Assembly: GCA_045637465.1 (NCBI GenBank)
Contig: JAZTZM010000040.1
Coordinates: forward strand, 111,399-175,398
Direction of reading: 5' to 3'
Origin: Acutalibacteraceae bacterium
GTDB lineage: Bacteria > Bacillota > Clostridia > Oscillospirales > Acutalibacteraceae
DNA: 64,000 bases
Under the pieces are notes generated by a model that had not been told where the DNA came from, ran no database searches, and saw nothing but the letters and a program-made list of their open reading frames with translations. This document shows positions 29,125 through 41,327 of this stretch, piece by piece; position 1 is the first letter of the stretch; every line of letters starts with the position of its first letter. Position numbers and translations under genes: made by a program.

Positions 29125-31320
29125 TTGGTTAATGATGAAACAGAAATCATCGGTATCGTCGAAGACGTTTCGGTGCATATTGAAGAGACCGGCTTTACCG
29201 TGCTTGAGCTGTCGAGCGATGATGAATTCATCACCGTTGTCGGCGTGCTGCCCGATGTTGCAGTCGGTGAAAAGCTGACCGTCAGGGGCAACTATGATAC
29301 GCATCCGCTCTACGGCAGACAGTTCAAGGCAAAATCCTTTGCGCGCTCGCTTCCCTCAAGTGCGCAGGATTTATACAAATACCTTTCTGCAGGCACTGTC
29401 AAAGGCATAGGCCCTGCAACAGCGCAGAAAATTGTTGAGGAATTCGGTGACGATGCATTTGACATTCTCGAAAATCATCCCGAAAAGCTCAGCAAAATCA
29501 AAGGTATCTCAAGGCAGAAGGCGAACACAATCTGCGAGGAGTTTTCGCGTCAGTTTGCCGTCAGACAGACTCTTATTGCGCTCGAAAAATTCGGTATGAC
29601 CGCAAGAGAGAGCCTTAACGCATACAAAATTTTCGGCTTCAATGCCGTTGCTATGATTAAAACAAATCCGTACATTCTCTGCGCGGAGAGCATAGGTGTC
29701 AACTTTGAGCGAGCCGATGCAATTGCATCGTCACTGCCGGACAAGCCCGAGCAGATGCACCGCATACGTGCAGGTGTGCTTCACGTGCTCCGCCACAACC
29801 TCGGCAACGGTCATACCTGCTGCCCGAGAGATAAGCTGGCTCTGCCGGCAACCGAGCTGCTCGGTGTTGAGGAGCAGCTTTTGCGTGAAGCAACGGATGC
29901 ACTTATCAGCGACAGACAGCTTGTCAGCGAAGATCTTGACGGCAGGGAGTTCCTTTTTCTGCCATACATACACAGAAGTGAAAAAAATGCCGCAAGGCGC
30001 ATCAAGGTACTCTGCTCATTTCCTCCTGCAGGCAAACCTACACTGCTTCAGGATATTGAGGATATTGAGAATATGCTTTGCATAAGATATGAGCAAAAGC
30101 AGAAGGCGGCAATCATCACCGCTGTTGAAAAAGGTGTGCTTATACTGACCGGCGGTCCCGGTACGGGTAAGACAACCACGATAAACGGTATGATATCGCT
30201 GTTTCAGAAGGATAATCTGCGAATTGCGCTTGCTGCACCTACAGGCAGGGCGGCAAAACGGATGAGCGAAATCACGGGTATGGAGGCAAAGACCATTCAC
30301 AGACTGCTCGAGGTTGAGTGGGATGATGAAGACAATCAGGCATTTTCCAGAAATGAGCGCAACCCGATTGAGGCTGACGTGCTTATTGTGGATGAGCTGT
30401 CGATGATTGATATTCAGCTTTTCTCAAGCCTGCTCGATGCTCTGCCTCTCGGCTGCCGACTGATAATGGTGGGCGATTCCGATCAGCTTCCGCCTGTCGG
30501 CGCAGGCAACGTGCTCCACGATATGATAGGCAGCGGTATGCTGCCCGTTGTTGAGCTTAAAGAGGTGTTCCGTCAGGCTCAGCGCAGTGTGATTGTCACA
30601 AACGCACACAGAATTGTTTCGGGTGAAAACCCCGACCTTACAAGAAAAGACGGAGACTTTTTCTTCTTGCCCAGAAGAGTCGGTTCTCAGGCGGCAGATA
30701 CCGTTTGTGAGCTTTGTGCAAACCGTCTGCCAAAGGCTTACGACTATTCGCCGATAACTGATATTCAGGTGCTCTGCCCCTCCAGAAGAGGCGAAATGGG
30801 CACGTATAACCTCAACCGCCGTTTGCAGGAGGTAATAAATCCCCCCGATAAGAGGAAGAATGAAATTACCGTTGGTATGTTCCGCTTCCGTGAGGGCGAT
30901 AAGGTAATGCACATCAAAAACAACTACGACATCCTCTGGAAAAAGCCTGACGGCGAAGAGGGCAGCGGAGTTTTCAATGGCGATATCGGCACGATTGAGT
31001 CGATAAGACCCGACGGTATGACAAAGATAGTTTTCGATGACGGCAGAGAGTGCAGCTACTTCCCCGATACGATGAGGGAGCTTGAGCTTGCCTATGCCGT
31101 TACCGTGCACAAAAGTCAGGGCAACGAGTTTGAGGCGGTTGTTATGCCCGTGCTCAACACACCCGAGCTTCTCAGCTACCGTAACCTGCTTTACACAGCG
31201 GTTACAAGGGCGAAAAAGCTGATGATAATTGTCGGCAATGAGGAGCAGATATACAGAATGGCGCGCAACGATAAAAAGGCAAGGCGCTATTCGGCACTCA
31301 GACATTTTCTGCTTGAGTGA
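29125..31320 (+). CDS. recD2: RecD2-type SF1B ATP-dependent DNA helicase
   Basis: Walker A GGPGTGKTT, ...LIVDELSMID..., ...MVGDSDQLPPVG..., ...TVHKSQGNEF..., HhH region ...GIGPATAQKI.... Confidence 0.9.
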   Translation: MVNDETEIIGIVEDVSVHIEETGFTVLELSSDDEFITVVGVLPDVAVGEKLTVRGNYDTHPLYGRQFKAKSFARSLPSSAQDLYKYLSAGTVKGIGPATAQKIVEEFGDDAFDILENHPEKLSKIKGISRQKANTICEEFSRQFAVRQTLIALEKFGMTARESLNAYKIFGFNAVAMIKTNPYILCAESIGVNFERADAIASSLPDKPEQMHRIRAGVLHVLRHNLGNGHTCCPRDKLALPATELLGVEEQLLREATDALISDRQLVSEDLDGREFLFLPYIHRSEKNAARRIKVLCSFPPAGKPTLLQDIEDIENMLCIRYEQKQKAAIITAVEKGVLILTGGPGTGKTTTINGMISLFQKDNLRIALAAPTGRAAKRMSEITGMEAKTIHRLLEVEWDDEDNQAFSRNERNPIEADVLIVDELSMIDIQLFSSLLDALPLGCRLIMVGDSDQLPPVGAGNVLHDMIGSGMLPVVELKEVFRQAQRSVIVTNAHRIVSGENPDLTRKDGDFFFLPRRVGSQAADTVCELCANRLPKAYDYSPITDIQVLCPSRRGEMGTYNLNRRLQEVINPPDKRKNEITVGMFRFREGDKVMHIKNNYDILWKKPDGEEGSGVFNGDIGTIESIRPDGMTKIVFDDGRECSYFPDTMRELELAYAVTVHKSQGNEFEAVVMPVLNTPELLSYRNLLYTAVTRAKKLMIIVGNEEQIYRMARNDKKARRYSALRHFLLE

Positions 31321-31344
31321 TAAAGAAAAGGAGGAAAACCTATA

Positions 31345-31887
31345 ATGGAAAATTTTACGTTTGATGACGGCATTGAGCCGGGCGGACTCAGGTCGCGCAA
31401 TGAAATAAAGGTGCTTGTCTGCTATCTGCTTGCAGGTGTGGATGAGAGAATAACAAGAAGTCAGCTCTGTGAGATTGCACTTGATAAGGGTCTTGCAAAT
31501 TATTTCGAGGTCAATCAGGCTGTGAGCGAGCTTATCGAAAACGGTGCAGTGGTTTCTGATTTTATCGAGTGTGAGGAGTATCTCAGCGTCACCGATAAGG
31601 GTCGCTCATCCTCGAAAATGCTCGAGAGTCAGCTGCCGCGCTCTGTCAGAGAGAAGGCAATCAACGCCGCAATAAAAATGCTCACCCTTGCCAAGCGCAA
31701 GCGTGAGAATAAGGTTGAGGTCGAAAGGCTGGAGGATGGCGGTTTCCACGTAACCTTCACGATGGAAGAGATGATGAAGCTGACGATTTATGTCGCCGAC
31801 GAAATGCAGGTTGAAACGGTCAAGAATAATTTCTATGAAGACCCGATAAAACTGTATTCGGGCATTATAGCTTCACTTACAGTGTGA
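31345..31887 (+). CDS. DUF4364-family protein
   Basis: 180 aa starting ...GGLRSRNEIKVLVCYLL.... Family assignment is from memory of DUF4364. A good RBS (AGGAGGA) lies upstream. Confidence 0.65.
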   Translation: MENFTFDDGIEPGGLRSRNEIKVLVCYLLAGVDERITRSQLCEIALDKGLANYFEVNQAVSELIENGAVVSDFIECEEYLSVTDKGRSSSKMLESQLPRSVREKAINAAIKMLTLAKRKRENKVEVERLEDGGFHVTFTMEEMMKLTIYVADEMQVETVKNNFYEDPIKLYSGIIASLTV

Positions 31888-31891
31888 TAAC

Positions 31892-32138
31892 GAATTGGTT
31901 TACCAATTCAAATCATGTTGCACAGCAACAAATCATGGCAATAAGCCAAATCATGCGCAAGCAAATCATCAGGATATAAAAATAATGATACAAACTTACC
32001 TCGGTGTCGCTGACTTAACTTTGCGTATCAACTTTATTGAGGTATTAAAAATATGATTTGCCTGACGGCATGATTTGATTTCTTCGAAATCGTGATTTGT
32101 AAAATAAATTTTACATGATTTGTGTTTTTTTAAAACAC
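31892..32138. repeat. Composite hairpin-array element, copy A: 4x [G..C hairpin + AAATCAT], insert, then 4x [ATGATTT + G..C hairpin]
   Basis: AAATCAT at 31910, 31930, 31948, 31963. ATGATTT/GTGATTT at 32053, 32070, 32092, 32115. Each is flanked by a small hairpin (for example GAATTG/CAATTC, GTTGC/GCAAC, GCC/GGC, GATTTC/GAAATC, GTAAAAT/ATTTTAC, GTGTTTT/AAAACAC). Confidence 0.85.
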
Positions 32139-32196
32139 ATTTTATATATTAGGTAATAAACTCAAAGTATATTATAAAACGAAAGGCTGATAAAAA

Positions 32197-33861
32197 ATGG
32201 CAAAGTATACAATAGGTCTCGATTACGGCACGCTTTCCGGACGTGCGCTTATCGTCAACGTTGAAACAGGCGAGGAGCTTGCAAGCAGCGTTTACGAATA
32301 TCCCCACGCAGTTATGGATGAGAAGCTTCCCTGCGGCAAAAAGCTCGGTCAGGACTGGGCGCTTCAGCATCCGCAGGATTACATAGACGTGCTCAGCATC
32401 ACAATCCCCGACGTTATCAAAAAGAGCGGTGTTGATGCTGATGATATTATCGGTGTCGGTATCGACTTTACGGCTTGTACGGTGCTCCCCACAACAAAGA
32501 GCGGCACTCCGCTCTGCTTCCTTGATGAGTATAAGTCAGAGCCGCACGCTTACGTAAAGCTCTGGAAGCACCATGCTGCACAGGCACATGCAACACGCCT
32601 TAACGATATCGCAATCGAAATGGGTGAGGAGTGGCTTGAGAATTACGGCGGCAAAATTTCCTCCGAGTGGGCAATTCCGAAGCTCTGGCAGATTCTTGAC
32701 GAAGCTCCCGAAATCTATGAGAAGGCAGAGCGTTTCATCGAGGCTACAGACTGGGTTGTATGGCAGCTCACAGGTGTTGAAACACGCAACTCCTGCTGTG
32801 CAGGCTATAAGGCAATGTGGAATAAGACCACAGGCTATCCCTCAAACGAATTCTTCAAGGCTCTCGACCCGAGAATGGAGAACGTTATCGACGAAAAATT
32901 CGGCAGAGAGGTGCTTGCAAGCGGTAAGTGCGCAGGCTACATCACAGAAGAGGCTGCAAAGCTCACAGGTCTTAAACCCGGTACAGCTGTTGCCGCAGGT
33001 ATTATCGACGCTCATATTTTTGTTCCCGCTGTCGGTGTATCAAAGCCCGGTGAGATGGTTGCAATTATCGGCACGTCAACCTGCCATATGATGATGTCAG
33101 ATGTTGAGAAGAAGGTAAAGGGCATCTGCGGTGTTGTTGCAGACGGCATTATGCCCGGCCTTTACGGCTATGAAGCAGGTCAGAGCTGTGTCGGTGACCA
33201 CTTCGGTTGGTTTATTGACAACTGCCTGCCCGAAAGCTACTACAAAGAAGCTCAGGAGAAGGGTATCAATATCCACAAGCTCCTTCGCTCCAAGTGTGAG
33301 GCACAGAAACCCGGCGCAAGCGGACTTGTCGCACTCGATTGGTGGAACGGCAACCGTTCAATCCTCGTTGACGTTGACCTTACGGGTATGATTGTCGGTA
33401 TGACACTTCGCACAAAGCCTGAAGAAATCTACCGTGCACTTATCGAGGCAACGGCATACGGCACAAGAATGATTATTGAAAACTACCGTGAGCAGGGCGT
33501 TGAGGTCAACTCCTTCTATGCCGCAGGCGGTATTTCACAGAAAGACCCGATGACAATGCAGATTTATGCAGATATCATCAAAATGCCCATCAAGATTGCA
33601 GGCTCAGACCAGGGCGGTGCACTCGGCTCAGCTATCTTCGGTGCAGTTGCCGCAGGCAGTGAGAAGGGCGGCTATGACGACGCTTTCTATGCTGCAAGCA
33701 TTATGGGTAAGGTTAAGGACGTTGTTTACGAGCCTATCAAGGAGAATTCCGATATTTACGATAAGCTCTATGCAGAGTATAAGATTCTTCACGATTATTT
33801 CGGTCAGGGCGGTAACGACGTTATGAAGCGCCTTAAGGCAATCAAGGGCGAGAACGAATAA
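32197..33861 (+). CDS. araB: L-ribulokinase (FGGY family)
   Basis: The N-terminus [25 protein letters not shown]...[11 protein letters not shown] closely resembles Bacillus AraB. Length is 554 aa. Confidence 0.88.
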
Positions 33862-33895
33862 TTCGGAATTATATTAAATTTAAGGAGGCAAGGCT

Positions 33896-34642
33896 TTGAA
33901 GAATGACCGACGCAGAATACATCTTATTGATGAGATAAGAGGTCTGTCAATAATACTTATGGTGTTTTACCACGGCTTCTTTATGCTCGGTTATTTTTTC
34001 GGGATAGAGTTTCTTGCAAAGGCGCAGACCTTTTTTGAACCGCTTCAGCCTGTTTTCGCCTGCCTCTTTATCTTTATTTCGGGCATATCGTCAAACCTTT
34101 CACGCAGCAATTTCAAGCGTGGCATAAGGCTGCTTGCAATTGCTCTCGGGTTTACGCTGGTTACGGCGGTTATACTGCCGAAATTTGACATAACGGGCGC
34201 AGAGATTTATTTCGGCGTGCTTCATCTGCTGAGCGTTTCGATGCTGCTTTATGCTTTGCTCAGACCGCTGCTTGCAAAGGTTAACACAACTGTCGGCATA
34301 CTTGCGACGCTTGTGCTTTTTGCGGTGAGTTATACTGTGCCAAAGGGCAATCTCATTGGGCTTGATTTGCCCGATGCGCCGTATAACCTCGGCTTTCTTG
34401 CTCCGCTCGGTTTTCCGGGTGAAGGTTTTTATTCGGCGGATTATTTTCCGCTTATTCCGTTTGTTTTTATGTTTGTTGCCGGCACGTTTTTCGGCAGACT
34501 CGCAACGTCGGGCAAGCTGCCTGAGTGGTGGTATGTTTCGCGTTGCAAGCCTCTGGCGGTTGTCGGCGGCAAAACGCTTATAATTTATATACTCCATTGG
34601 CCGATTATATTTTTAATAGGCTTGATAATCTCGCTGTTTTAA
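33896..34642 (+). CDS. DUF1624 (heparan-alpha-glucosaminide N-acetyltransferase-like) membrane protein
   Basis: ...RIHLIDEIRGLSIILMVFYH... N-terminal motif and multiple TM segments. TTG start 7 nt after GGAGG. Confidence 0.68.
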   Translation: MKNDRRRIHLIDEIRGLSIILMVFYHGFFMLGYFFGIEFLAKAQTFFEPLQPVFACLFIFISGISSNLSRSNFKRGIRLLAIALGFTLVTAVILPKFDITGAEIYFGVLHLLSVSMLLYALLRPLLAKVNTTVGILATLVLFAVSYTVPKGNLIGLDLPDAPYNLGFLAPLGFPGEGFYSADYFPLIPFVFMFVAGTFFGRLATSGKLPEWWYVSRCKPLAVVGGKTLIIYILHWPIIFLIGLIISLF

Positions 34643-34703
34643 TGTATAATGGGCACAGGTATATGTTCAGAAATTAAGAATTATAAAGTAAGGGTGACTT
34701 ATT

Positions 34704-35051
34704 ATGGAGAAAAACAGAGTCAGACTCAACATCTGCGGTGCAGATTACAGCATTACAACAGAGGACGATCCCAAGTACGTTATGGCGCTTGGCGATGAGC
34801 TTGATGCAGCTCTCACAAAGACACTTCGTGAGAACAGCCGTCTTTCCGTAACACAGGCTGCTATCCTTGCAGCTCTCGAATATGCTGATATGTACAAGAA
34901 GGCAGAAGTAAGCGCAGACAATCTCCGCGGTCAGATCAAGGAATATCTTGAGGATTCCGCACGCTCCAAGATGGATGCAGAGATTGCAAAGCGTGAGGTC
35001 GAAAGACTTACAAGAGAGCTTCAGAACGCTCAGGCAAAGCTCGGTGGTTGA
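34704..35051 (+). CDS. zapA: Cell division protein ZapA
   Basis: ...VRLNICGADYSITTEDDPKYV...LSVTQAAILAAL... followed by a coiled-coil tail. Confidence 0.85.
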   Translation: MEKNRVRLNICGADYSITTEDDPKYVMALGDELDAALTKTLRENSRLSVTQAAILAALEYADMYKKAEVSADNLRGQIKEYLEDSARSKMDAEIAKREVERLTRELQNAQAKLGG

Positions 35052-37089
35052 GGTATTAGCTCCTGCCGGAACATATGAAGCTGTTGAGGCGGCGGTGCGC
35101 TGTGGCGCAGACGCTGTTTACCTCGGCGGCAAAGTGCTGAATGCCCGCCGAAATGCGGGCAATTTCAGTTTTGAGGAGCTTAAATCGGCAACAGAATATT
35201 GTCACGTCAGAGGCACAAAGGTTTATCTGACGCTTAATACGCTCGCTTCGGATGCTGAACTTAAAAATGATGTTCAGTGTGCGGTGCGCGATGCCTGCGC
35301 GGCAGGTGTTGACGCTCTTATCATTCAGGATATGGGCGTTTTTCGTCTTGCAAAAATGTGTGCGCCCACAATGCCGCTGCACGCTTCAACACAGATGTCG
35401 GTGCATACGCTCGCAGGTGTAAAGCAGCTTGCAGAGATGGGCTTTTCCCGTGCGGTGCTCGCAAGGGAGCTTTCGCTTGATGAGATTGAATATATAGTTA
35501 AAAATTCACCTATTGATATAGAAGTGTTTGTTCACGGTGCGCTTTGTATGTGCGTTTCGGGTCAGTGCCTGATGAGCGCAATGCTCGGCTCACGCAGCGC
35601 AAACAGAGGGCTTTGTGCCCAGCCTTGCCGCTTGCCCTTTGCCGCAACCGACGGCACGGGCAACGACCTGAGCCTCAAGGATCTGTCAGCGATTGATTAC
35701 CTTGAAAAGCTTCGGGAAATCGGCGTAAAATCGTTCAAAATAGAGGGCAGAATGAAACGCCCGGAATATGTCGCCGCCGCTGTTACAGCGTGCAGAAAGG
35801 CGCTTAAAAACGAAAATGATGCTGTTTTGCGTGATCAGCTCCGCGGTGTGTTCTCACGCTCGGGTTTTACGCACGGCTATCTGACGGGTGAGCTTGGCAG
35901 GGATATGTTCGGCATCCGCCGTAAGGATGACGTTACTGCGGCACAGCCGGTGCTTAAAGAGCTTGCAAGGCTTTATGAAAAGGAGACACCCCGTGTCGGT
36001 GTTGATTTTATGTTCTGCGCCTATGAGGGCGAAACGGCAAGCCTCTCCGCAAAGGCGGCGGGCAAGAGCGCTTTTGTGCTCGGTGATGTCGAGGCACAGC
36101 CTGCACAGAACGTTCCTCTGACAGAAGAAAAGGTGCGCCAGCAGCTCGAAAAATGCGGCGGCACACCATTCTTTGTGAGCAGTATCGAGACGGATATTGA
36201 TGATAATATCAGCCTGCCTTTGTCGTCAATAAATGCACTCCGCAGAGCAGCTTTTGATAAACTCTACGAAGAGTTAAAACGCCCTTACAACCACGGTTTC
36301 AGGCCAATTAATGTGGAAAACTATGTGAAAAAAGTGAAAAACCCACAGTTTTTCGCACGTTTTTCTAAGTTTGAACAGGCAAAAGCAGTTTGGGAAAATG
36401 TGGAAAAGGTTATTCTTCCACTCTCCCAGGCACAGAAATCTGCAGAGAAAAATGCGGCAAAAACAGTGGCTGAAATACCGAGAGTATTTTTTGGGAAAGA
36501 GGACACGGTGCTCGAAAAACTGCGTGCTTTAAAACAGCTCGGAGTAGAGTGGGCAGCGTGCTCAACGCTTGATGCCGTTTACCTTGCAAAAAAGGCTCAG
36601 ATGCGGATTGTGCTGAGTATGGGAAGCAACGTTTTCAACTCGCTGAGCGCAGTGCAGGCAGAGGAGCTTGGCGCGGAAAAAATTGTTCTTTCGCCCGAAC
36701 TTACACTTATGCAGGCTTCGAAGGTTGGCGGTAAGAGCGAAAAGGGACTCATCGTTTACGGCAAGCTGCCGCTTATGATAACACGCAACTGCCCCATAAA
36801 GAACGGTACGGACTGTGCTCACTGCGGCGGCAAACGAAAGCTGACCGACAGGCTCGGCGTGGAATTTCCCGTGGTGTGTGAAAACGGCTATTCGCAGGTG
36901 CTCAATTCAAGACCGATTTATATGGCTGACAGACTGAGTGAAACCGCATTTGCCGATTTTAATCTGCTCTGGTTTACGGACGAGAGCGGTGATGAATGTA
37001 AACAGGTGCTTGAAAAGTATATGAGCGGTGCACCTGCACCCGACACAAAGGATTTTACACGCGGACTGTATTACAGAGGTGTGGAATAA
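35044..37089 (+). CDS. Peptidase U32 family protein
   Basis: ...EVLAPAGTYEAVEAAVRCGADAVYLGG..., ...E.F.HGALC...SGQC..S.....RSANRG.C.Q.CR... U32 signature. The start is uncertain. GTG at 35044 overlaps the zapA stop, and the track start at 34948 lies inside zapA. Confidence 0.82.
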   Translation: MVEVLAPAGTYEAVEAAVRCGADAVYLGGKVLNARRNAGNFSFEELKSATEYCHVRGTKVYLTLNTLASDAELKNDVQCAVRDACAAGVDALIIQDMGVFRLAKMCAPTMPLHASTQMSVHTLAGVKQLAEMGFSRAVLARELSLDEIEYIVKNSPIDIEVFVHGALCMCVSGQCLMSAMLGSRSANRGLCAQPCRLPFAATDGTGNDLSLKDLSAIDYLEKLREIGVKSFKIEGRMKRPEYVAAAVTACRKALKNENDAVLRDQLRGVFSRSGFTHGYLTGELGRDMFGIRRKDDVTAAQPVLKELARLYEKETPRVGVDFMFCAYEGETASLSAKAAGKSAFVLGDVEAQPAQNVPLTEEKVRQQLEKCGGTPFFVSSIETDIDDNISLPLSSINALRRAAFDKLYEELKRPYNHGFRPINVENYVKKVKNPQFFARFSKFEQAKAVWENVEKVILPLSQAQKSAEKNAAKTVAEIPRVFFGKEDTVLEKLRALKQLGVEWAACSTLDAVYLAKKAQMRIVLSMGSNVFNSLSAVQAEELGAEKIVLSPELTLMQASKVGGKSEKGLIVYGKLPLMITRNCPIKNGTDCAHCGGKRKLTDRLGVEFPVVCENGYSQVLNSRPIYMADRLSETAFADFNLLWFTDESGDECKQVLEKYMSGAPAPDTKDFTRGLYYRGVE

Positions 37090-37146
37090 GCCTTGTTTTT
37101 AAAGGTAGTCTGTGATAAAATAATTACAGTTTCTCAAAAAGCTAAT

Positions 37147-37323
37147 GAATTGATTCTAATCAATTCAAATCATGGAGCGTAAGCGAGAAATCATGGCGTT
37201 TACGCCAAATCATGTGACAGCAAATCATTTTAATTTTATTTTATGATTTGCCTTACGGCATGATTTGATTTAAAAAATCATGAATTGCAAAATTTTTATT
37301 TTGCATGATTTGCGATAAGTCGC
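37147..37323. repeat. Composite hairpin-array element, copy B: 4x [hairpin + AAATCAT] directly abutting 4x [ATGATTT + hairpin]
   Basis: AAATCAT at 37167, 37188, 37207, 37222. ATGATTT/ATGAATT at 37243, 37260, 37280, 37305. Hairpins are GAATTG/CAATTC, GGCG/CGCC, GCC/GGC, GATTT/AAATC, GCAAAAT/ATTTTGC, GCGA/TCGC. Confidence 0.85.
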
Positions 37324-37324
37324 A

Positions 37325-37418
37325 TTTATTGAGGTATCAAAAACGGAAAGGCAGAGAATAAAGCTTTCCTCGGTGTCTCGATGTCAAATAGTAAATCAAT
37401 TTTATTGAGGTATTAAAA
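37325..37418 (+). promoter_or_regulatory. Structured 5' leader of the DUF896 gene with a duplicated SD-containing 13-mer and a single anti-SD
   Basis: TTTATTGAGGTAT at 37325 and again at 37401 (the real RBS). GGAAAGC/GCTTTCC hairpin at 37345-37369. CCTC anti-SD at 37368-37371. Confidence 0.45.
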
Positions 37419-37625
37419 ATGGAACAGTGGGAATATGACAGAATAAGTGAGCTGACAAGGATTGCGCGTGAGCGTGAGCTGACACCTGAAGAGCAGGAAG
37501 AGCGTGCAGACCTGAGAAGAAGGTATATTGATTCCTTCAAGCGCAGCCTGACTTCACAGCTTGACGTGACTTATATCGTTGACGAAAAGGGCAACAAAAC
37601 CAAACTTGAGCGTAAGAAAAAATAA
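37419..37625 (+). CDS. DUF896 (UPF0291, YnzC-like) small protein
   Basis: 68 aa, ...RINELARKSK-type helix (ISELTRIARERELTPEEQEERADLRRRYIDSFK) typical of DUF896. Confidence 0.8.
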   Translation: MEQWEYDRISELTRIARERELTPEEQEERADLRRRYIDSFKRSLTSQLDVTYIVDEKGNKTKLERKKK

Positions 37626-37649
37626 TTTAACACTGAGAGGTGCTTTAAA

Positions 37650-38504
37650 ATGTATAATTTTTCAATCGGCGTAATTATTGACTCGTTCCGTCTTCCTATC
37701 AAGGATGCGGTGAAGAAGGCAGCTGAGGTTGGTGCTCAGGGCATTCAGGTCTATTCAACAAGGGGCGAAATGGCTCCCGAGAACCTTGATGCTGCTGCAC
37801 GTGCCGAGTTCAAAAAGTTGGTTGAGGGCAACGGCCTTGTTATCTCCGCTCTCTGCGGTGACCTTGGCGGCGGCGGATTCAGCTTTGCTGACAGAAACCC
37901 CGAGAAGATTGAGAAATCAAAGAGAATTCTCGACCTTGCAAAGGAGCTTGGCACAAACGTTGTAACAACACACATCGGTGTTGTGCCTGAGGATAAGAAC
38001 CACGACAGATATAAGGTTATGCAGGAGGCTTGCTACGAGCTTTCACGCTATGCTGACGAAATCGGTGCTCATTTCGCAATTGAAACAGGTCCCGAAACAT
38101 CCGCAGTGCTCAAGGATTTCCTCGATTCACTCGGCTCAACAGGTGTCGGTGTAAACCTTGACCCCGCAAACCTTGTTATGGTAACAGGTGACGACCCCGT
38201 AGGTGCGGTTTACAACCTTCAGAAGTATATCGTACATACACACGCTAAGGACGGCGTTCAGAATTTTGTTGAAGATCCCGAAATTGTTTACGGCCTTAAG
38301 AAGAGACCCGTTGACGTTATTGTCACAGGCGATTCGTTTGATGAAGTTCCGCTTGGCGAAGGCAGTGTTCCGTGGGATGGCTACCTCAAGGCACTTGACG
38401 ATATCGGATATAAAGGCTTCCTTACAATCGAGCGTGAGGTCGGCGACAATCCTGCAGAGGATATCCGTAAGGCAGTTAAATTCCTGGAGGATCATATCAG
38501 ATAA
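37650..38504 (+). CDS. Sugar phosphate isomerase/epimerase (xylose isomerase-like TIM barrel)
   Basis: AP_endonuc_2-type pattern ...FAIETGPE..., ...NLDPANL..., ...HAKDG.... RBS GAGAGG upstream. Confidence 0.82.
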   Translation: MYNFSIGVIIDSFRLPIKDAVKKAAEVGAQGIQVYSTRGEMAPENLDAAARAEFKKLVEGNGLVISALCGDLGGGGFSFADRNPEKIEKSKRILDLAKELGTNVVTTHIGVVPEDKNHDRYKVMQEACYELSRYADEIGAHFAIETGPETSAVLKDFLDSLGSTGVGVNLDPANLVMVTGDDPVGAVYNLQKYIVHTHAKDGVQNFVEDPEIVYGLKKRPVDVIVTGDSFDEVPLGEGSVPWDGYLKALDDIGYKGFLTIEREVGDNPAEDIRKAVKFLEDHIR

Positions 38505-39442: not shown

Positions 39443-41188
39443 TTATTCGTCATTCTTGTGCTCGTTGTAGTAATCAATGGTTGATGATTCTGCTGTGAGC
39501 ACGTGTGAGAAGAAGAACTCTTCTCTGGGCTTGGTGTTGATAACCGTAACAGGTTTGATCTGGTTGAGAACAACACCCTGTGCGCGGAGATTCTCTCTGT
39601 AATCCCAGTATGTGTTGGGGTTGAGGATGAGAATTTCGGGACGGTTGAGCATACCCCAACGTCTATACTTGTAGTACTTCTCGTTAACGTCTTTAAGCTC
39701 TTCGTCAAGAATGTCAATCATTTCCTGGCGCTTCTCTTCGCTTACGTCGCCCTTAAGCTCTGCAAAGAGACAGTAGCGGGGAGGATTGGAGGAGAAATCG
39801 GGATAGAAGCTGTAGCCGACGAAATCGGAGCTTGTTCTCTCGAACATCTTCTTTGCTGCGTAGTCAACCATTGCGGTTGTTGTCTTTTCGTTGGCAACGT
39901 TCATGCTCAGGTTCTTTCTGTAAAGGAACTCGATAACGGGTGTATCGTTATGCATTCTTGTAACCTGAACGATATCCTCCATACGGTATCTGTAAAGACC
40001 TGAAGAGTTTGTAACAACAAGCTCATACTTTTTGCCAACCTCAACCTCGTTGATAAGCAGGGTCTTTGGTGTTTCTGTCTCCTCTTCTTCAGCGTCATCG
40101 TTTACGGGGATGAACTCGAAGAAGATGCTGTAGGGGATAAGTGCGCTGTCGTGTGTGTCAAGCTCTGTCGGCATTGCGAAGAAGCCTTCAGCAGCAGCGT
40201 AACCCATATTGTGAATCGGAACGTTGTCACCGATTGAGCGGCGGAGCTTTTCAACGTAAACCTTGAGGTTTGAGCCGATCATACCGTAAGCGAACGTAAG
40301 TCTGGGCCAGATTCTGGGTGCGATGGGTGTATCGAAGCCCTTGCGGAATTCTTTGCGGAGGAATTCTGCTCTCTTGGGGTTGGGCTTAAGCTTCTTTTCG
40401 TATTCTGCACGAAGCTCGGGTGTGATCTTGATGTTTTCGCCGATTGTGCCGTGCTCGATATCGTCGCAGAGCTGTTCCCAGTTTTCCTCAAGGTAGTCAA
40501 ACATTGTTGTAACAAGAGTTATAACAATACTACCGATGTAGGAAACCTTCTCTTCCTGAAGTGCGAAACGAAGCTGAAGATATGATGTGTCAAGCAGCTC
40601 CTCGTGCTCAGGATAAAGCAGAGAAACGGGAGAGGTGACGAAGAAATTAGAGAAAGGCTTGAGATATGTCAGCGGAACCTGACCGGCACCGTTGCACATC
40701 TTGCCGTCTTCAAGCTTGTGACCTGTAAGGATAATAACGAGCGGACCCATGATAGCGGGCAGCTTTTTGCCCATGTGCTTTTTGATGTGGCGGGATGTTA
40801 CGGCAACAGTGCAGGAGAAACCGCAGCACTGCATATTCCACAGGTCAAAAATTGATTTGGGAAGAATCTTCGGCTTGCCGACACTGCCTGATGATGAGCA
40901 GTAACGGATGTTGGCACCCGTGTACATAATATTCTTCTCTCTGTTGTGGATCATACGGTCTACGAGCGCGTCGTAATCTTCGTAGGTTGAAAGCGGAACC
41001 TTTGAACGGAAATCTTCTAAACTGTGAATGTTGGCAAAATCTAACTTCTTGCCGAGTTCACAGTTCTTGTTTTTTCTGATGATTTTGTTGAGAAGTTTCT
41101 TCTGAGCTTTCATCGGGTTCTTTGACGTACGCTCAAATTTGGCGAGGGTTACTTCGCCAAGCAATGCGCCTAAATCTGAAAAATTCAT
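39443..41188 (-). CDS. GH3-family (auxin-responsive GH3-like) acyl-adenylate-forming enzyme, bacterial homolog
   Basis: 581 aa. N-terminal ...NPMKAQKKLLNKII..N...ELGKK..F..I.S.EDFRSKVPLSTYEDY... and ...SSGSVGKPK.. P-loop-like motif, as recalled for PF03321. Confidence 0.8.
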   Translation of the reverse strand: MNFSDLGALLGEVTLAKFERTSKNPMKAQKKLLNKIIRKNKNCELGKKLDFANIHSLEDFRSKVPLSTYEDYDALVDRMIHNREKNIMYTGANIRYCSSSGSVGKPKILPKSIFDLWNMQCCGFSCTVAVTSRHIKKHMGKKLPAIMGPLVIILTGHKLEDGKMCNGAGQVPLTYLKPFSNFFVTSPVSLLYPEHEELLDTSYLQLRFALQEEKVSYIGSIVITLVTTMFDYLEENWEQLCDDIEHGTIGENIKITPELRAEYEKKLKPNPKRAEFLRKEFRKGFDTPIAPRIWPRLTFAYGMIGSNLKVYVEKLRRSIGDNVPIHNMGYAAAEGFFAMPTELDTHDSALIPYSIFFEFIPVNDDAEEEETETPKTLLINEVEVGKKYELVVTNSSGLYRYRMEDIVQVTRMHNDTPVIEFLYRKNLSMNVANEKTTTAMVDYAAKKMFERTSSDFVGYSFYPDFSSNPPRYCLFAELKGDVSEEKRQEMIDILDEELKDVNEKYYKYRRWGMLNRPEILILNPNTYWDYRENLRAQGVVLNQIKPVTVINTKPREEFFFSHVLTAESSTIDYYNEHKNDE

Positions 41189-41327
41189 TGTACACTTCCT
41201 TTACCTTATAAATCATTGAATCGGGATGTTTTAAATCATACAGGGTTATTATAGCATATTTAGAAAAATAATAATTCTAAAAAAGAAAAATAAAAGCAAA
41301 ATAAGCAGAAAATATGTGGAAAATATA

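Follow-up and report, generated by a model that had tools for sequence, protein, structure and literature searches.

Intervening sequences with an S23p open reading frame (ORF) have been on record since 1990-93 as "selfish elements"; to our knowledge, nobody has shown how they originate or how they move. It has also been remarked more than once, with no explanation given, that heptameric repeats are in excess in the intergenic DNA of bacteria. The S23p-bearing intervening sequences lie in the 23S rRNA of Leptospira, Coxiella, Brucella and Haemophilus (Ralph & McClelland 1993; PMC4990558); in the Coxiella element, 3-4 GACAGAT heptamers precede the S23p ORF and the 28-bp terminal stem is cut by RNase III (PMC4990558). 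Rehm et al. 2015 described intergenic runs of mostly four heptamers, GGGAATC in Xanthomonas and GGGGAYT in Nostoc, together with ~70 gene-less inverted heptamer pairs per Xanthomonas genome, which vary between related species and whose function is unexplained (PMC4692102). Here we describe two arrays built from the heptamer ATGATTT (AAATCAT on the other strand) and short G...C hairpins in a 64,000-nt stretch, hereafter the window, of contig JAZTZM010000040.1 from an Acutalibacteraceae bacterium. These arrays are very probably the terminal arms of a cassette encoding a small four-helix-bundle protein of the PF05635/TIGR02436 family, named "23S rRNA intervening-sequence protein" or S23p, an Avd-like pentamer. 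The window copies themselves, whose centres of 83 nt and 14 nt hold no PF05635 ORF, are classed as gene-less derivatives and not as full members.

The first array, copy A, had been presented in an earlier note as eight units in two inverted arms, and our reading of positions 31500-32500 returned identical coordinates and the same units, which establishes the array as real. Its left arm (31892-31969, plus strand, delimited by reading the sequence) consists of four units, each a mini-hairpin followed by AAATCAT: hairpin GAATTGgtttacCAATTC at 31892-31909 (stem GAATTG/CAATTC) with AAATCAT at 31910-31916, GTTGCacaGCAAC at 31917-31929 (GTTGC/GCAAC) with AAATCAT at 31930-31936, GGCaataaGCC at 31937-31947 (GGC/GCC) with AAATCAT at 31948-31954, and GCgcaaGC at 31955-31962 (GC/GC) with AAATCAT at 31963-31969. 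The centre (31970-32052, plus strand) is 83 nt long, consists mostly of a repeated sequence that we call the C module (...cttaCCTCGGTGTCgc...atcaacTTTATTGAGGTATTAAAA), and occupies the slot of the four-helix-bundle gene in full-length elements. In the right arm (32053-32141, plus strand) the order is reversed, four heptamers each being followed by a mini-hairpin: ATGATTT at 32053-32059 with GCCtgacGGC at 32060-32069 (GCC/GGC), ATGATTT at 32070-32076 with GATTTCttcGAAATC at 32077-32091 (GATTTC/GAAATC), the variant GTGATTT at 32092-32098 with GTAAAATaaATTTTAC at 32099-32114 (GTAAAAT/ATTTTAC), ATGATTT at 32115-32121 with GTGTTTTtttAAAACAC at 32122-32138 (GTGTTTT/AAAACAC), and a terminal ATT.

A second array, copy B, lies at 37145-37326 and likewise has 4+4 arms, with 14 nt between them. 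The left arm (37145-37228, plus strand) opens with the variant heptamer ATGAATT and continues with four units that each end in AAATCAT and carry, in order, GAATTG/CAATTC, the non-hairpin sequence GGAGCG..GCGAG, GGCG/CGCC and G..GC; a gene-free A/T spacer (tttaattttatttt, 37229-37242, plus strand) leads to the right arm (37243-37326, plus strand), made of ATGATTT with GCC/GGC, ATGATTT with GATTT/AAATC, ATGAATT with GCAAAAT/ATTTTGC and ATGATTT with GCGA/TCGC, then ATT. Hairpins differ between the two copies on both sides of the stem, for example GTAAAAT/ATTTTAC versus GCAAAAT/ATTTTGC and GTGTTTT/AAAACAC versus GCGA/TCGC, and an orthologue of the copy B left arm (L016, 1576-1799) shows compensatory differences. 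The window has 14 occurrences of the motif ATGATTTG, where 4.1 would be expected; none of 100 shuffles reached this count, and 13 of the 14 fall inside copies A and B.

Clustering of the ORFs from 34 array-bearing Clostridial loci showed that one small protein recurs beside the arrays across genomes, and this protein belongs to PF05635/TIGR02436. Gene-bearing elements in related gut Clostridia hold the ~120-aa protein between the same eight hairpins in the same order, and homology to the window arms can be followed unit by unit (same heptamer, stems and order) in three gene-bearing loci, L221, L043 and L063. In L221, the locus of protein P0005 (84% identical), there are two genes, each between four hairpin-AAATCAT units and three to four ATGATTT-hairpin units; the stems follow the window order (GTTGC, GGC, GC ... 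GATTTT, GTAAAAT, GCGTTTT), the downstream arms having GATTTT/AAAATC, GTAAAAT/ATTTTAC and GCGTTTT/AAAACGC ordered as in copy A. The upstream arm of L043 has the left-arm stems of copy A in the same order, and here the four-helix-bundle ORF extends into the first right-arm unit and ends there, its stop being the second heptamer's TGA, and the junction is alike in L221; because the ORF terminates in the arm, gene and arm are fused rather than juxtaposed. Further arm-flanked genes were found by tblastn, including two Bacteroidota cases with contiguous, hairpin-free TGATTT-type repeats. At E<=1e-20 the four-helix-bundle protein has 4292 close homologues. Many of these lie on contigs of 500-1300 bp, as would be expected if assemblies break at repeated arms. 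The earlier note could place the architecture in no known element class, a statement that no longer stands: the arms correspond to the flanks of PF05635 cassettes, whose general hallmark as a family is a 7-nt period.

This hallmark is apparent in an independent set of 80 metagenome loci fetched by protein alone (L120-L199), 66 of which were scored. A 6-mer present at least three times upstream of the gene, with its reverse complement at least three times downstream, was found in 31 of the 66 loci and for only 2 of 46 other ORFs of the same loci. Inspection by eye revealed tandem heptamers (for example GTAAAGT, TTGACAA, AGTGAAT, GGAATTC, TAAAAGG and ACATTAA) arranged in inverted runs, which are fitted closely into the gap from the stop of a host gene to the start of the gene after it. 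The heptamers are of ~30-40 different kinds, in arms mostly of 3-5 units with a mode of 4, a pattern that the 4+4 units of the window fit. The arms of most lineages are hairpin-free, whereas the Clostridial form puts a G...C mini-hairpin between heptamers; hairpin-spaced ATGAAT/ATGAAAT versions are present in L120 and in a phage-like contig. In 59 of 64 cases the gene runs in the direction of its upstream neighbour, and in 53 of 67 in that of its downstream neighbour. Loci that share a heptamer in different contexts encode more similar proteins, 81, 68 and 62% identical, where the median is 51% and the 95th percentile 60%. In the same upstream runs the sense strand is purine-rich (mean 0.65), and the heptamers contain a stop codon on the sense strand in 37 of 42 classes versus 23 of 42 on the antisense strand; as 7 is coprime to 3, three stop-containing heptamers close all three frames. 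In the window arrangement the stop-bearing reading points outward, and the frame-closing idea is therefore not relied on.

Two loci connect these arms to systems already described. In Xanthomonas campestris (L231), the orthologue of XCC0516, a pentamer that has been crystallised, sits between accB and accC with GGGAATC-type arms at 620-665 and 1030-1075; the upstream run reads GGGAATC GGGAGTG GAGAATC GGGAATC and the downstream run is its inverse. The gene is thus flanked by exactly the GGGAATC runs of Xanthomonas, which ties that repeat family to PF05635 genes; the repeats of Xanthomonas and Nostoc differ from the window form in that their heptamers are contiguous and hairpin-free. Rehm et al. 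read the heptamers as G-quadruplex formers and mention the four-helix-bundle gene 0 times (PMC4692102). At L049 (3780-4676), a four-helix-bundle cassette with (NGTGATTT)n and (AAATCACN)n arms lies between same-strand tRNA-Leu and tRNA-Gly genes, within a stable-RNA operon as rRNA intervening sequences are. Across phyla, the cassette gene, with ~4 tandem heptamers on one side and ~4 in reverse complement on the other, sits sense-oriented in short spacers of host transcription units, which include mRNA operons, a tRNA operon and, according to the literature, 23S rRNA helices.

The rRNA intervening sequences share with the cassettes their PF05635 cargo, terminal inverted repeats built of heptamers, whose number in Coxiella (3-4) matches the ~4 per arm found here, and a location in a host transcription unit; they too have ORF-less or ORF-decayed versions, are regarded as selfish, and are of unexplained mobility. 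They differ from the window copies in being placed in 23S rRNA (in the strict sense, helix 25 or 45), whereas the window copies are mRNA-intergenic and ORF-less, and in that the window heptamers are separated by mini-hairpins and so form no plain continuous arm duplex. RNase III excision has been shown experimentally for the Coxiella element, whereas the window form is known from predicted folds. No link between PF05635 genes in general and flanking heptamer arrays turned up in the searchable literature, although family descriptions and subscription journals may hold one; heptamers are mentioned together with an S23p gene only in the Coxiella case in the literature searched (PMC4990558). While the S23p intervening-sequence kind is known and poorly understood, the hairpin-spaced, gene-less, mRNA-intergenic form is new.

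The hairpins were analysed in 182 spacers between consecutive ATGATTT heptamers from related Clostridial loci. A flush Watson-Crick stem running from the first to the last spacer base has at least 3 bp in 81% of the spacers (2.5% when shuffled) and at least 4 bp in 59% (0.5% when shuffled); the first base is G in 172 and the last base C in 178 of the 182, and 54 distinct stems occur. The centre-to-centre spacing of the heptamers ranges from 15 to 25 bp. Among 169 hairpins the loop is 3 nt in 87 and 4 nt in 59. The stems are symmetric and the loops are strand-asymmetric: G..A loops are found in 85 of 169 hairpins on the strand that reads hairpin-AAATCAT (GNA in 50, GNNA in 31, GAA alone in 33) versus 1 of 169 on the other, and the bias is present in both arm arrangements (52/96 vs 0, 19/37 vs 1 and 11/17 vs 0). 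The hairpins are thus under selection, through 54 different stems, on one strand. Stem mismatches, as another test of the strand, gave G:T versus A:C counts of 3 versus 5, from very few mismatches. Unit 4 is often exactly GCGAAGC, GCGCAGC, GCGAAAGC or GCGCAAGC, the last being the GC/GC hairpin of the copy A left arm; these fit the GCGNAGC/GCGNNAGC mini-hairpin DNA motifs, and GCGCAAGC itself matches GCGNNAGC. As DNA, such mini-hairpins are extraordinarily stable; as RNA they are much weaker (PMC13037366; PMC3201870). Loop asymmetry and mini-hairpin DNA motifs together point to a folded single strand, more likely DNA than RNA, that would be used with two-fold symmetry, the favoured hairpin-AAATCAT strand being opposite DNA strands in the left and right arms. 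Predicted minimum-free-energy folds show the arms pairing as a long branched stem, as the earlier note had foreseen, with z-scores of -5.0 and -5.6 relative to shuffles. At position 2, several lineages have the non-hairpin unit GGAGCG..GCGAG (CTCG...CTCC on the other strand) in place of a hairpin, for example at window 37174-37187 and in L004, L011, L048, L091 and L105; in L011 it encloses an inner hairpin.

Further copies, for which the earlier note had suggested a pattern search, were indeed found. Besides copy B, at least 119 DNA stretches matched when a single genome of each species was scanned for three closely spaced ATGATTTG motifs; among the matches listed, ~40 of 119 come from gut or rumen Clostridia and the remainder are unrelated tandem repeats. 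Carriers include Acutalibacteraceae, Christensenellaceae, Oscillospiraceae, Lachnospiraceae and several "Clostridia bacterium" genomes, and a single 138-kb Acutalibacteraceae contig has at least eight arrays. Across lineages the heptamer is constant and the stems differ. Within Acutalibacteraceae the eight hairpins are conserved by array position, with stems that differ from position to position; the invariance of the 7-mer asserted in the earlier note, with its one GTGATTT variant, was upheld, but its view of the hairpins as freely variable was not. The plasmid collection yielded no match (blastn, distant mode), and the phage collection, searched in protein mode, yielded two unannotated gut contigs only, one with hairpin-spaced ATGAAAT/ATTTCAT units. 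The orientation of gene-less copies relative to their neighbours showed no clear bias by crude, noisy ORF calling.

Several observations belong beside this survey. A Christensenellaceae locus (L093, 2806-6648) has three '++++ ... ----' elements in 4 kb, between co-directional genes, whose cargo differs (a four-helix-bundle gene, ~300 bp and ~140 bp); two host-gene stop codons there lie inside, or a few bases from, a terminal heptamer. L097 (1-1506) and L082 (6305-6632) contain ~30-unit tandem arrays of a ~41-nt unit with ATGATTT, ATGAATT and ATTGATTT and with GTACC/GGTAC and CCCCAAA/TTTGGGG hairpins, as if a related unit had undergone runaway expansion. At window 41182-41239, just upstream of a minus-strand GH3-family gene, there are three AAATCAT-like heptamers (AATTCAT, AAATCAT, AAATCAT) without hairpins, which may be a decayed arm or may be due to chance.

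Comparison of strains revealed that the element is dispensable. Ten contigs encode a DUF4364 protein identical to that of the window; in nine of them the site is empty, with only 35-38 nt ahead of the kinase gene, and L205 alone is occupied, by an element resembling copy A. L205 and the window agree in right arm and right flank and differ widely in left arm and centre, which suggests module exchange between copies. The copy B site is also variable among strains with an identical DUF896 protein, the states being arms plus one to two C modules, a C module between arms, a (CGCAATT)x4 run, and that run with a 202-aa ORF. The CGCAATT-type contigs of this U32/DUF896 site (L212/L214 at ~1330-1400, L211/L217) have four such heptamers and a 13-bp palindrome and lack ATGATTT arms; in two of them the 202-aa ORF, which has no Pfam hit, follows. 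This run may be another cassette type at the same hotspot. Presence or absence between strains and derivation from a gene-bearing element support the recombination or mobile role, similar to that of MITEs (miniature transposable elements with inverted repeats), which the earlier note had listed among its possibilities. The likeness to MITEs extends to short, non-coding, multi-copy units with inverted terminal arms and a longer gene-bearing relative, but the parent of the window family encodes the four-helix-bundle protein only, with no recognisable transposase, no target-site duplication was seen, and the window arms are arrays of short modules in place of a simple terminal inverted repeat.

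A number of results weigh against the proposal that the window arrays are arms of a mobile cassette. The comparison of empty and occupied sites at copy A shows no target-site duplication; ~8 nt of the empty site are replaced, ~25 nt beside the right arm have no counterpart, and there is no clean junction. Since the alleles also differ in those ~25 nt beside the element, allele replacement by recombination instead of transposition is possible. No recombinase or transposase is associated with the element, and no catalytic activity is known for the family protein. The arms occur in two arrangements, '----++++' as in the window and '++++----'. A tblastn search with three four-helix-bundle proteins found no match within the 64-kb window. 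Finally, the copy A centre is an unrelated module and not a gene remnant, which is compatible with a lost gene and with one that was never there alike.

The C module is a separate repeated sequence of ~75 nt (...GGCAC/GACAGAGG..TTTCCTCGGTG..ATCAACTTTATTGAGGTATTAAAA), often followed by ATG. It occupies 31990-32052 in copy A and recurs after copy B at 37326-37418 (plus strand, bounded by TTATTGAGGTATCAAAA and TTATTGAGGTATTAAAA), where it supplies the DUF896 gene (ATG at 37419) with its leader and ribosome-binding site; other copies are present in L004, L006, L039, L042, L050, L083, L105, L205 and L210-L219. Its location varies: it is found between the arms, as a tandem repeat, flanking an arm on both sides, or as leader of the DUF896 gene. 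With respect to the arms it can point either way (compare L013 with copy A), and the copy B site has 1-3 copies of it depending on the strain. Pairing is conceivable between its CCTC stretch and the GAGG ribosome-binding site, and it has no match in Rfam. The idea that the 83-nt centre of copy A is what remains of the four-helix-bundle gene, or of the leader of that gene, was rejected, the module being a separate one that is also found outside arms and in both orientations.

Four other explanations of the arrays were considered. It is unlikely that the inverted arrays are pre-existing landing pads into which four-helix-bundle genes, C modules and other cargo insert, the window copies being empty or differently loaded. 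Cargo that varies between a four-helix-bundle gene, 14 nt, one to two C modules and another 140-300 bp, a C module in either orientation, and the ~70 gene-less inverted heptamer pairs of Xanthomonas (PMC4692102) are what such pads would give, but an ORF fused to the arm and stopping at the TGA of the second heptamer is not, nor is the association of a shared heptamer with more similar proteins, and the gene-less unit is present or absent between strains as a whole. A repeat of the repetitive extragenic palindrome (REP) or bacterial interspersed mosaic element (BIME) kind, spread by an HUH-type nuclease encoded elsewhere (a REP-associated tyrosine transposase (RAYT) or one like the TnpA of IS200/IS605) with the gene as a frequent passenger, is also quite unlikely. 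It would be in keeping with intergenic, inverted arrays in many copies per genome and with an invariant short motif that adjoins the hairpin foot, as the GTAG motif does in REPs. The loop bias indicates strand-specific hairpins typical of single-stranded-DNA systems; REP/BIME with RAYT, IS200/IS605 ends and integron attC sites likewise depend for their function on hairpins folded from one DNA strand beside a short conserved single-stranded motif, and the asymmetry of 85 versus 1 is a signature of the same kind. However, no HUH nuclease or integrase is associated with the arrays, the ORF clustering of the 34 loci (loci, not whole genomes) having returned the four-helix-bundle protein as the only recurring one and no Y1/HUH nuclease or other transposase-like protein; each arm has four different hairpins and each element eight; and the hairpin-free arms of most lineages leave no room for hairpin recognition as the basic mechanism of the family.

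A host-useful RNA element, whether a bidirectional protector of mRNA ends, a processing site, an insulator or a structured or sponge RNA, we consider improbable. The predicted folds are far more stable than those of shuffles, the site lies between co-directional genes, the accompanying C module has a possible sequestered ribosome-binding site, and the stems of intervening sequences are RNase III substrates (PMC4990558). On the other hand, absence from nine of ten contigs with the identical DUF4364 shows that the element is dispensable, and the flanking genes, all protein-coding, are unrelated between copies (DUF4364 and an FGGY kinase for copy A, peptidase U32 and DUF896 for copy B), on which ground a shared arabinose operator was also rejected. 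The favoured loops are on opposite strands, so that no transcript has both arms in the favoured form, which argues against the protein-sponge RNA of the earlier note; triloops of the DNA mini-hairpin type dominate; and a cmscan of 31000-38500 against Rfam at E<=10, a check that the note had recommended, gave noise only, all far below gathering thresholds. The terminator or insulator role listed in the earlier note may still exist as a side-effect. Least probable by far is an array for binding of double-stranded DNA (iteron, operator or centromere-like) by an ATGATTT-reading protein. The heptamer is invariant and forms direct and inverted repeats, and heptad-binding repressors exist, the omega protein of inc18 plasmids being one; yet the variable spacing of the heptamers and a palindromy kept through 54 spacer stems, which has no role in duplex binding, speak against this reading and against the iteron-like site of the earlier note, and the copies, found at unrelated loci, are polymorphic from strain to strain. 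A leader-peptide reading of the ATGATTT units was rejected as well, the unit lengths showing no 3-nt phasing. So was a CRISPR array, which would have repeats of ~23-55 nt, unique spacers and cas genes and which the earlier note had correctly excluded: the repeat is only 7 nt, the "spacers" are position-conserved hairpins and no cas genes are nearby. The arms of a PF05635 cassette account better than any of the four explanations for the fused junction of ORF and arm, the hairpin-free relatives, the dispensability and the loop asymmetry.

For the arms of the PF05635 cassette we propose that stable mini-hairpins on a folded single strand would display the invariant 7-nt linkers, the relevant strand reading hairpin-AAATCAT; as the favoured strand is opposite in the two arms, a two-fold symmetric process at the DNA level fits better than a single transcript. 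In transcripts, the folds predict that the arms would pair heptamer to heptamer in a ~28-bp interrupted stem, which is reminiscent of the RNase III substrate stem of rRNA intervening sequences and would make the insertions tolerable. By analogy with Avd, the heptamer strings may be cis sites bound by the pentameric four-helix-bundle protein, and gene-less copies would be served in trans by a protein encoded elsewhere in the genome. Five chains are present in each of the solved relatives, 2RLD and 2GSC. Avd is a homologous pentameric four-helix-bundle barrel that has been compared with both structures (PMC10053308), and all five of its protomers contact a single RNA stem-loop (bioRxiv 10.1101/2023.10.23.563531). 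A structured nucleic acid bound by all five protomers is the point of likeness; the partner RNA of Avd is a single 11-bp stem-loop, in contrast to the arrays described here, and no reverse transcriptase, template or variable repeat is present. This mechanism as a whole is tentative, and we would not be surprised to see it replaced; the full explanation, in which the identity of the arms is blended with the mechanism, seems to us reasonably likely.

A broader and more speculative idea, which we put forward with considerable doubt, is that PF05635 genes with inverted heptamer arms are widespread, unrecognised mobile cassettes without a transposase. The pentamer would read ~4-5 heptamers on a folded single DNA strand, one protomer per heptamer, and would direct insertion just after stop codons within transcription units, gene-less copies being mobilised in trans. 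The system is tractable: occupied-site and empty-site strains are available in which the flanking proteins are identical, the heptamer is invariant, and the mini-hairpin signature shows which strand is of interest. On the present evidence, one scheme, a four-helix-bundle gene between ~4+4 inverted heptamers in sense orientation within transcription units, takes in the Clostridial arrays of the window, the GGGAATC pairs of Xanthomonas, XCC0516 and the rRNA intervening sequences. The broader idea, if true, would explain the origin of the intervening sequences, the excess of such repeats between bacterial genes and the hairpin arrays of the Clostridia.

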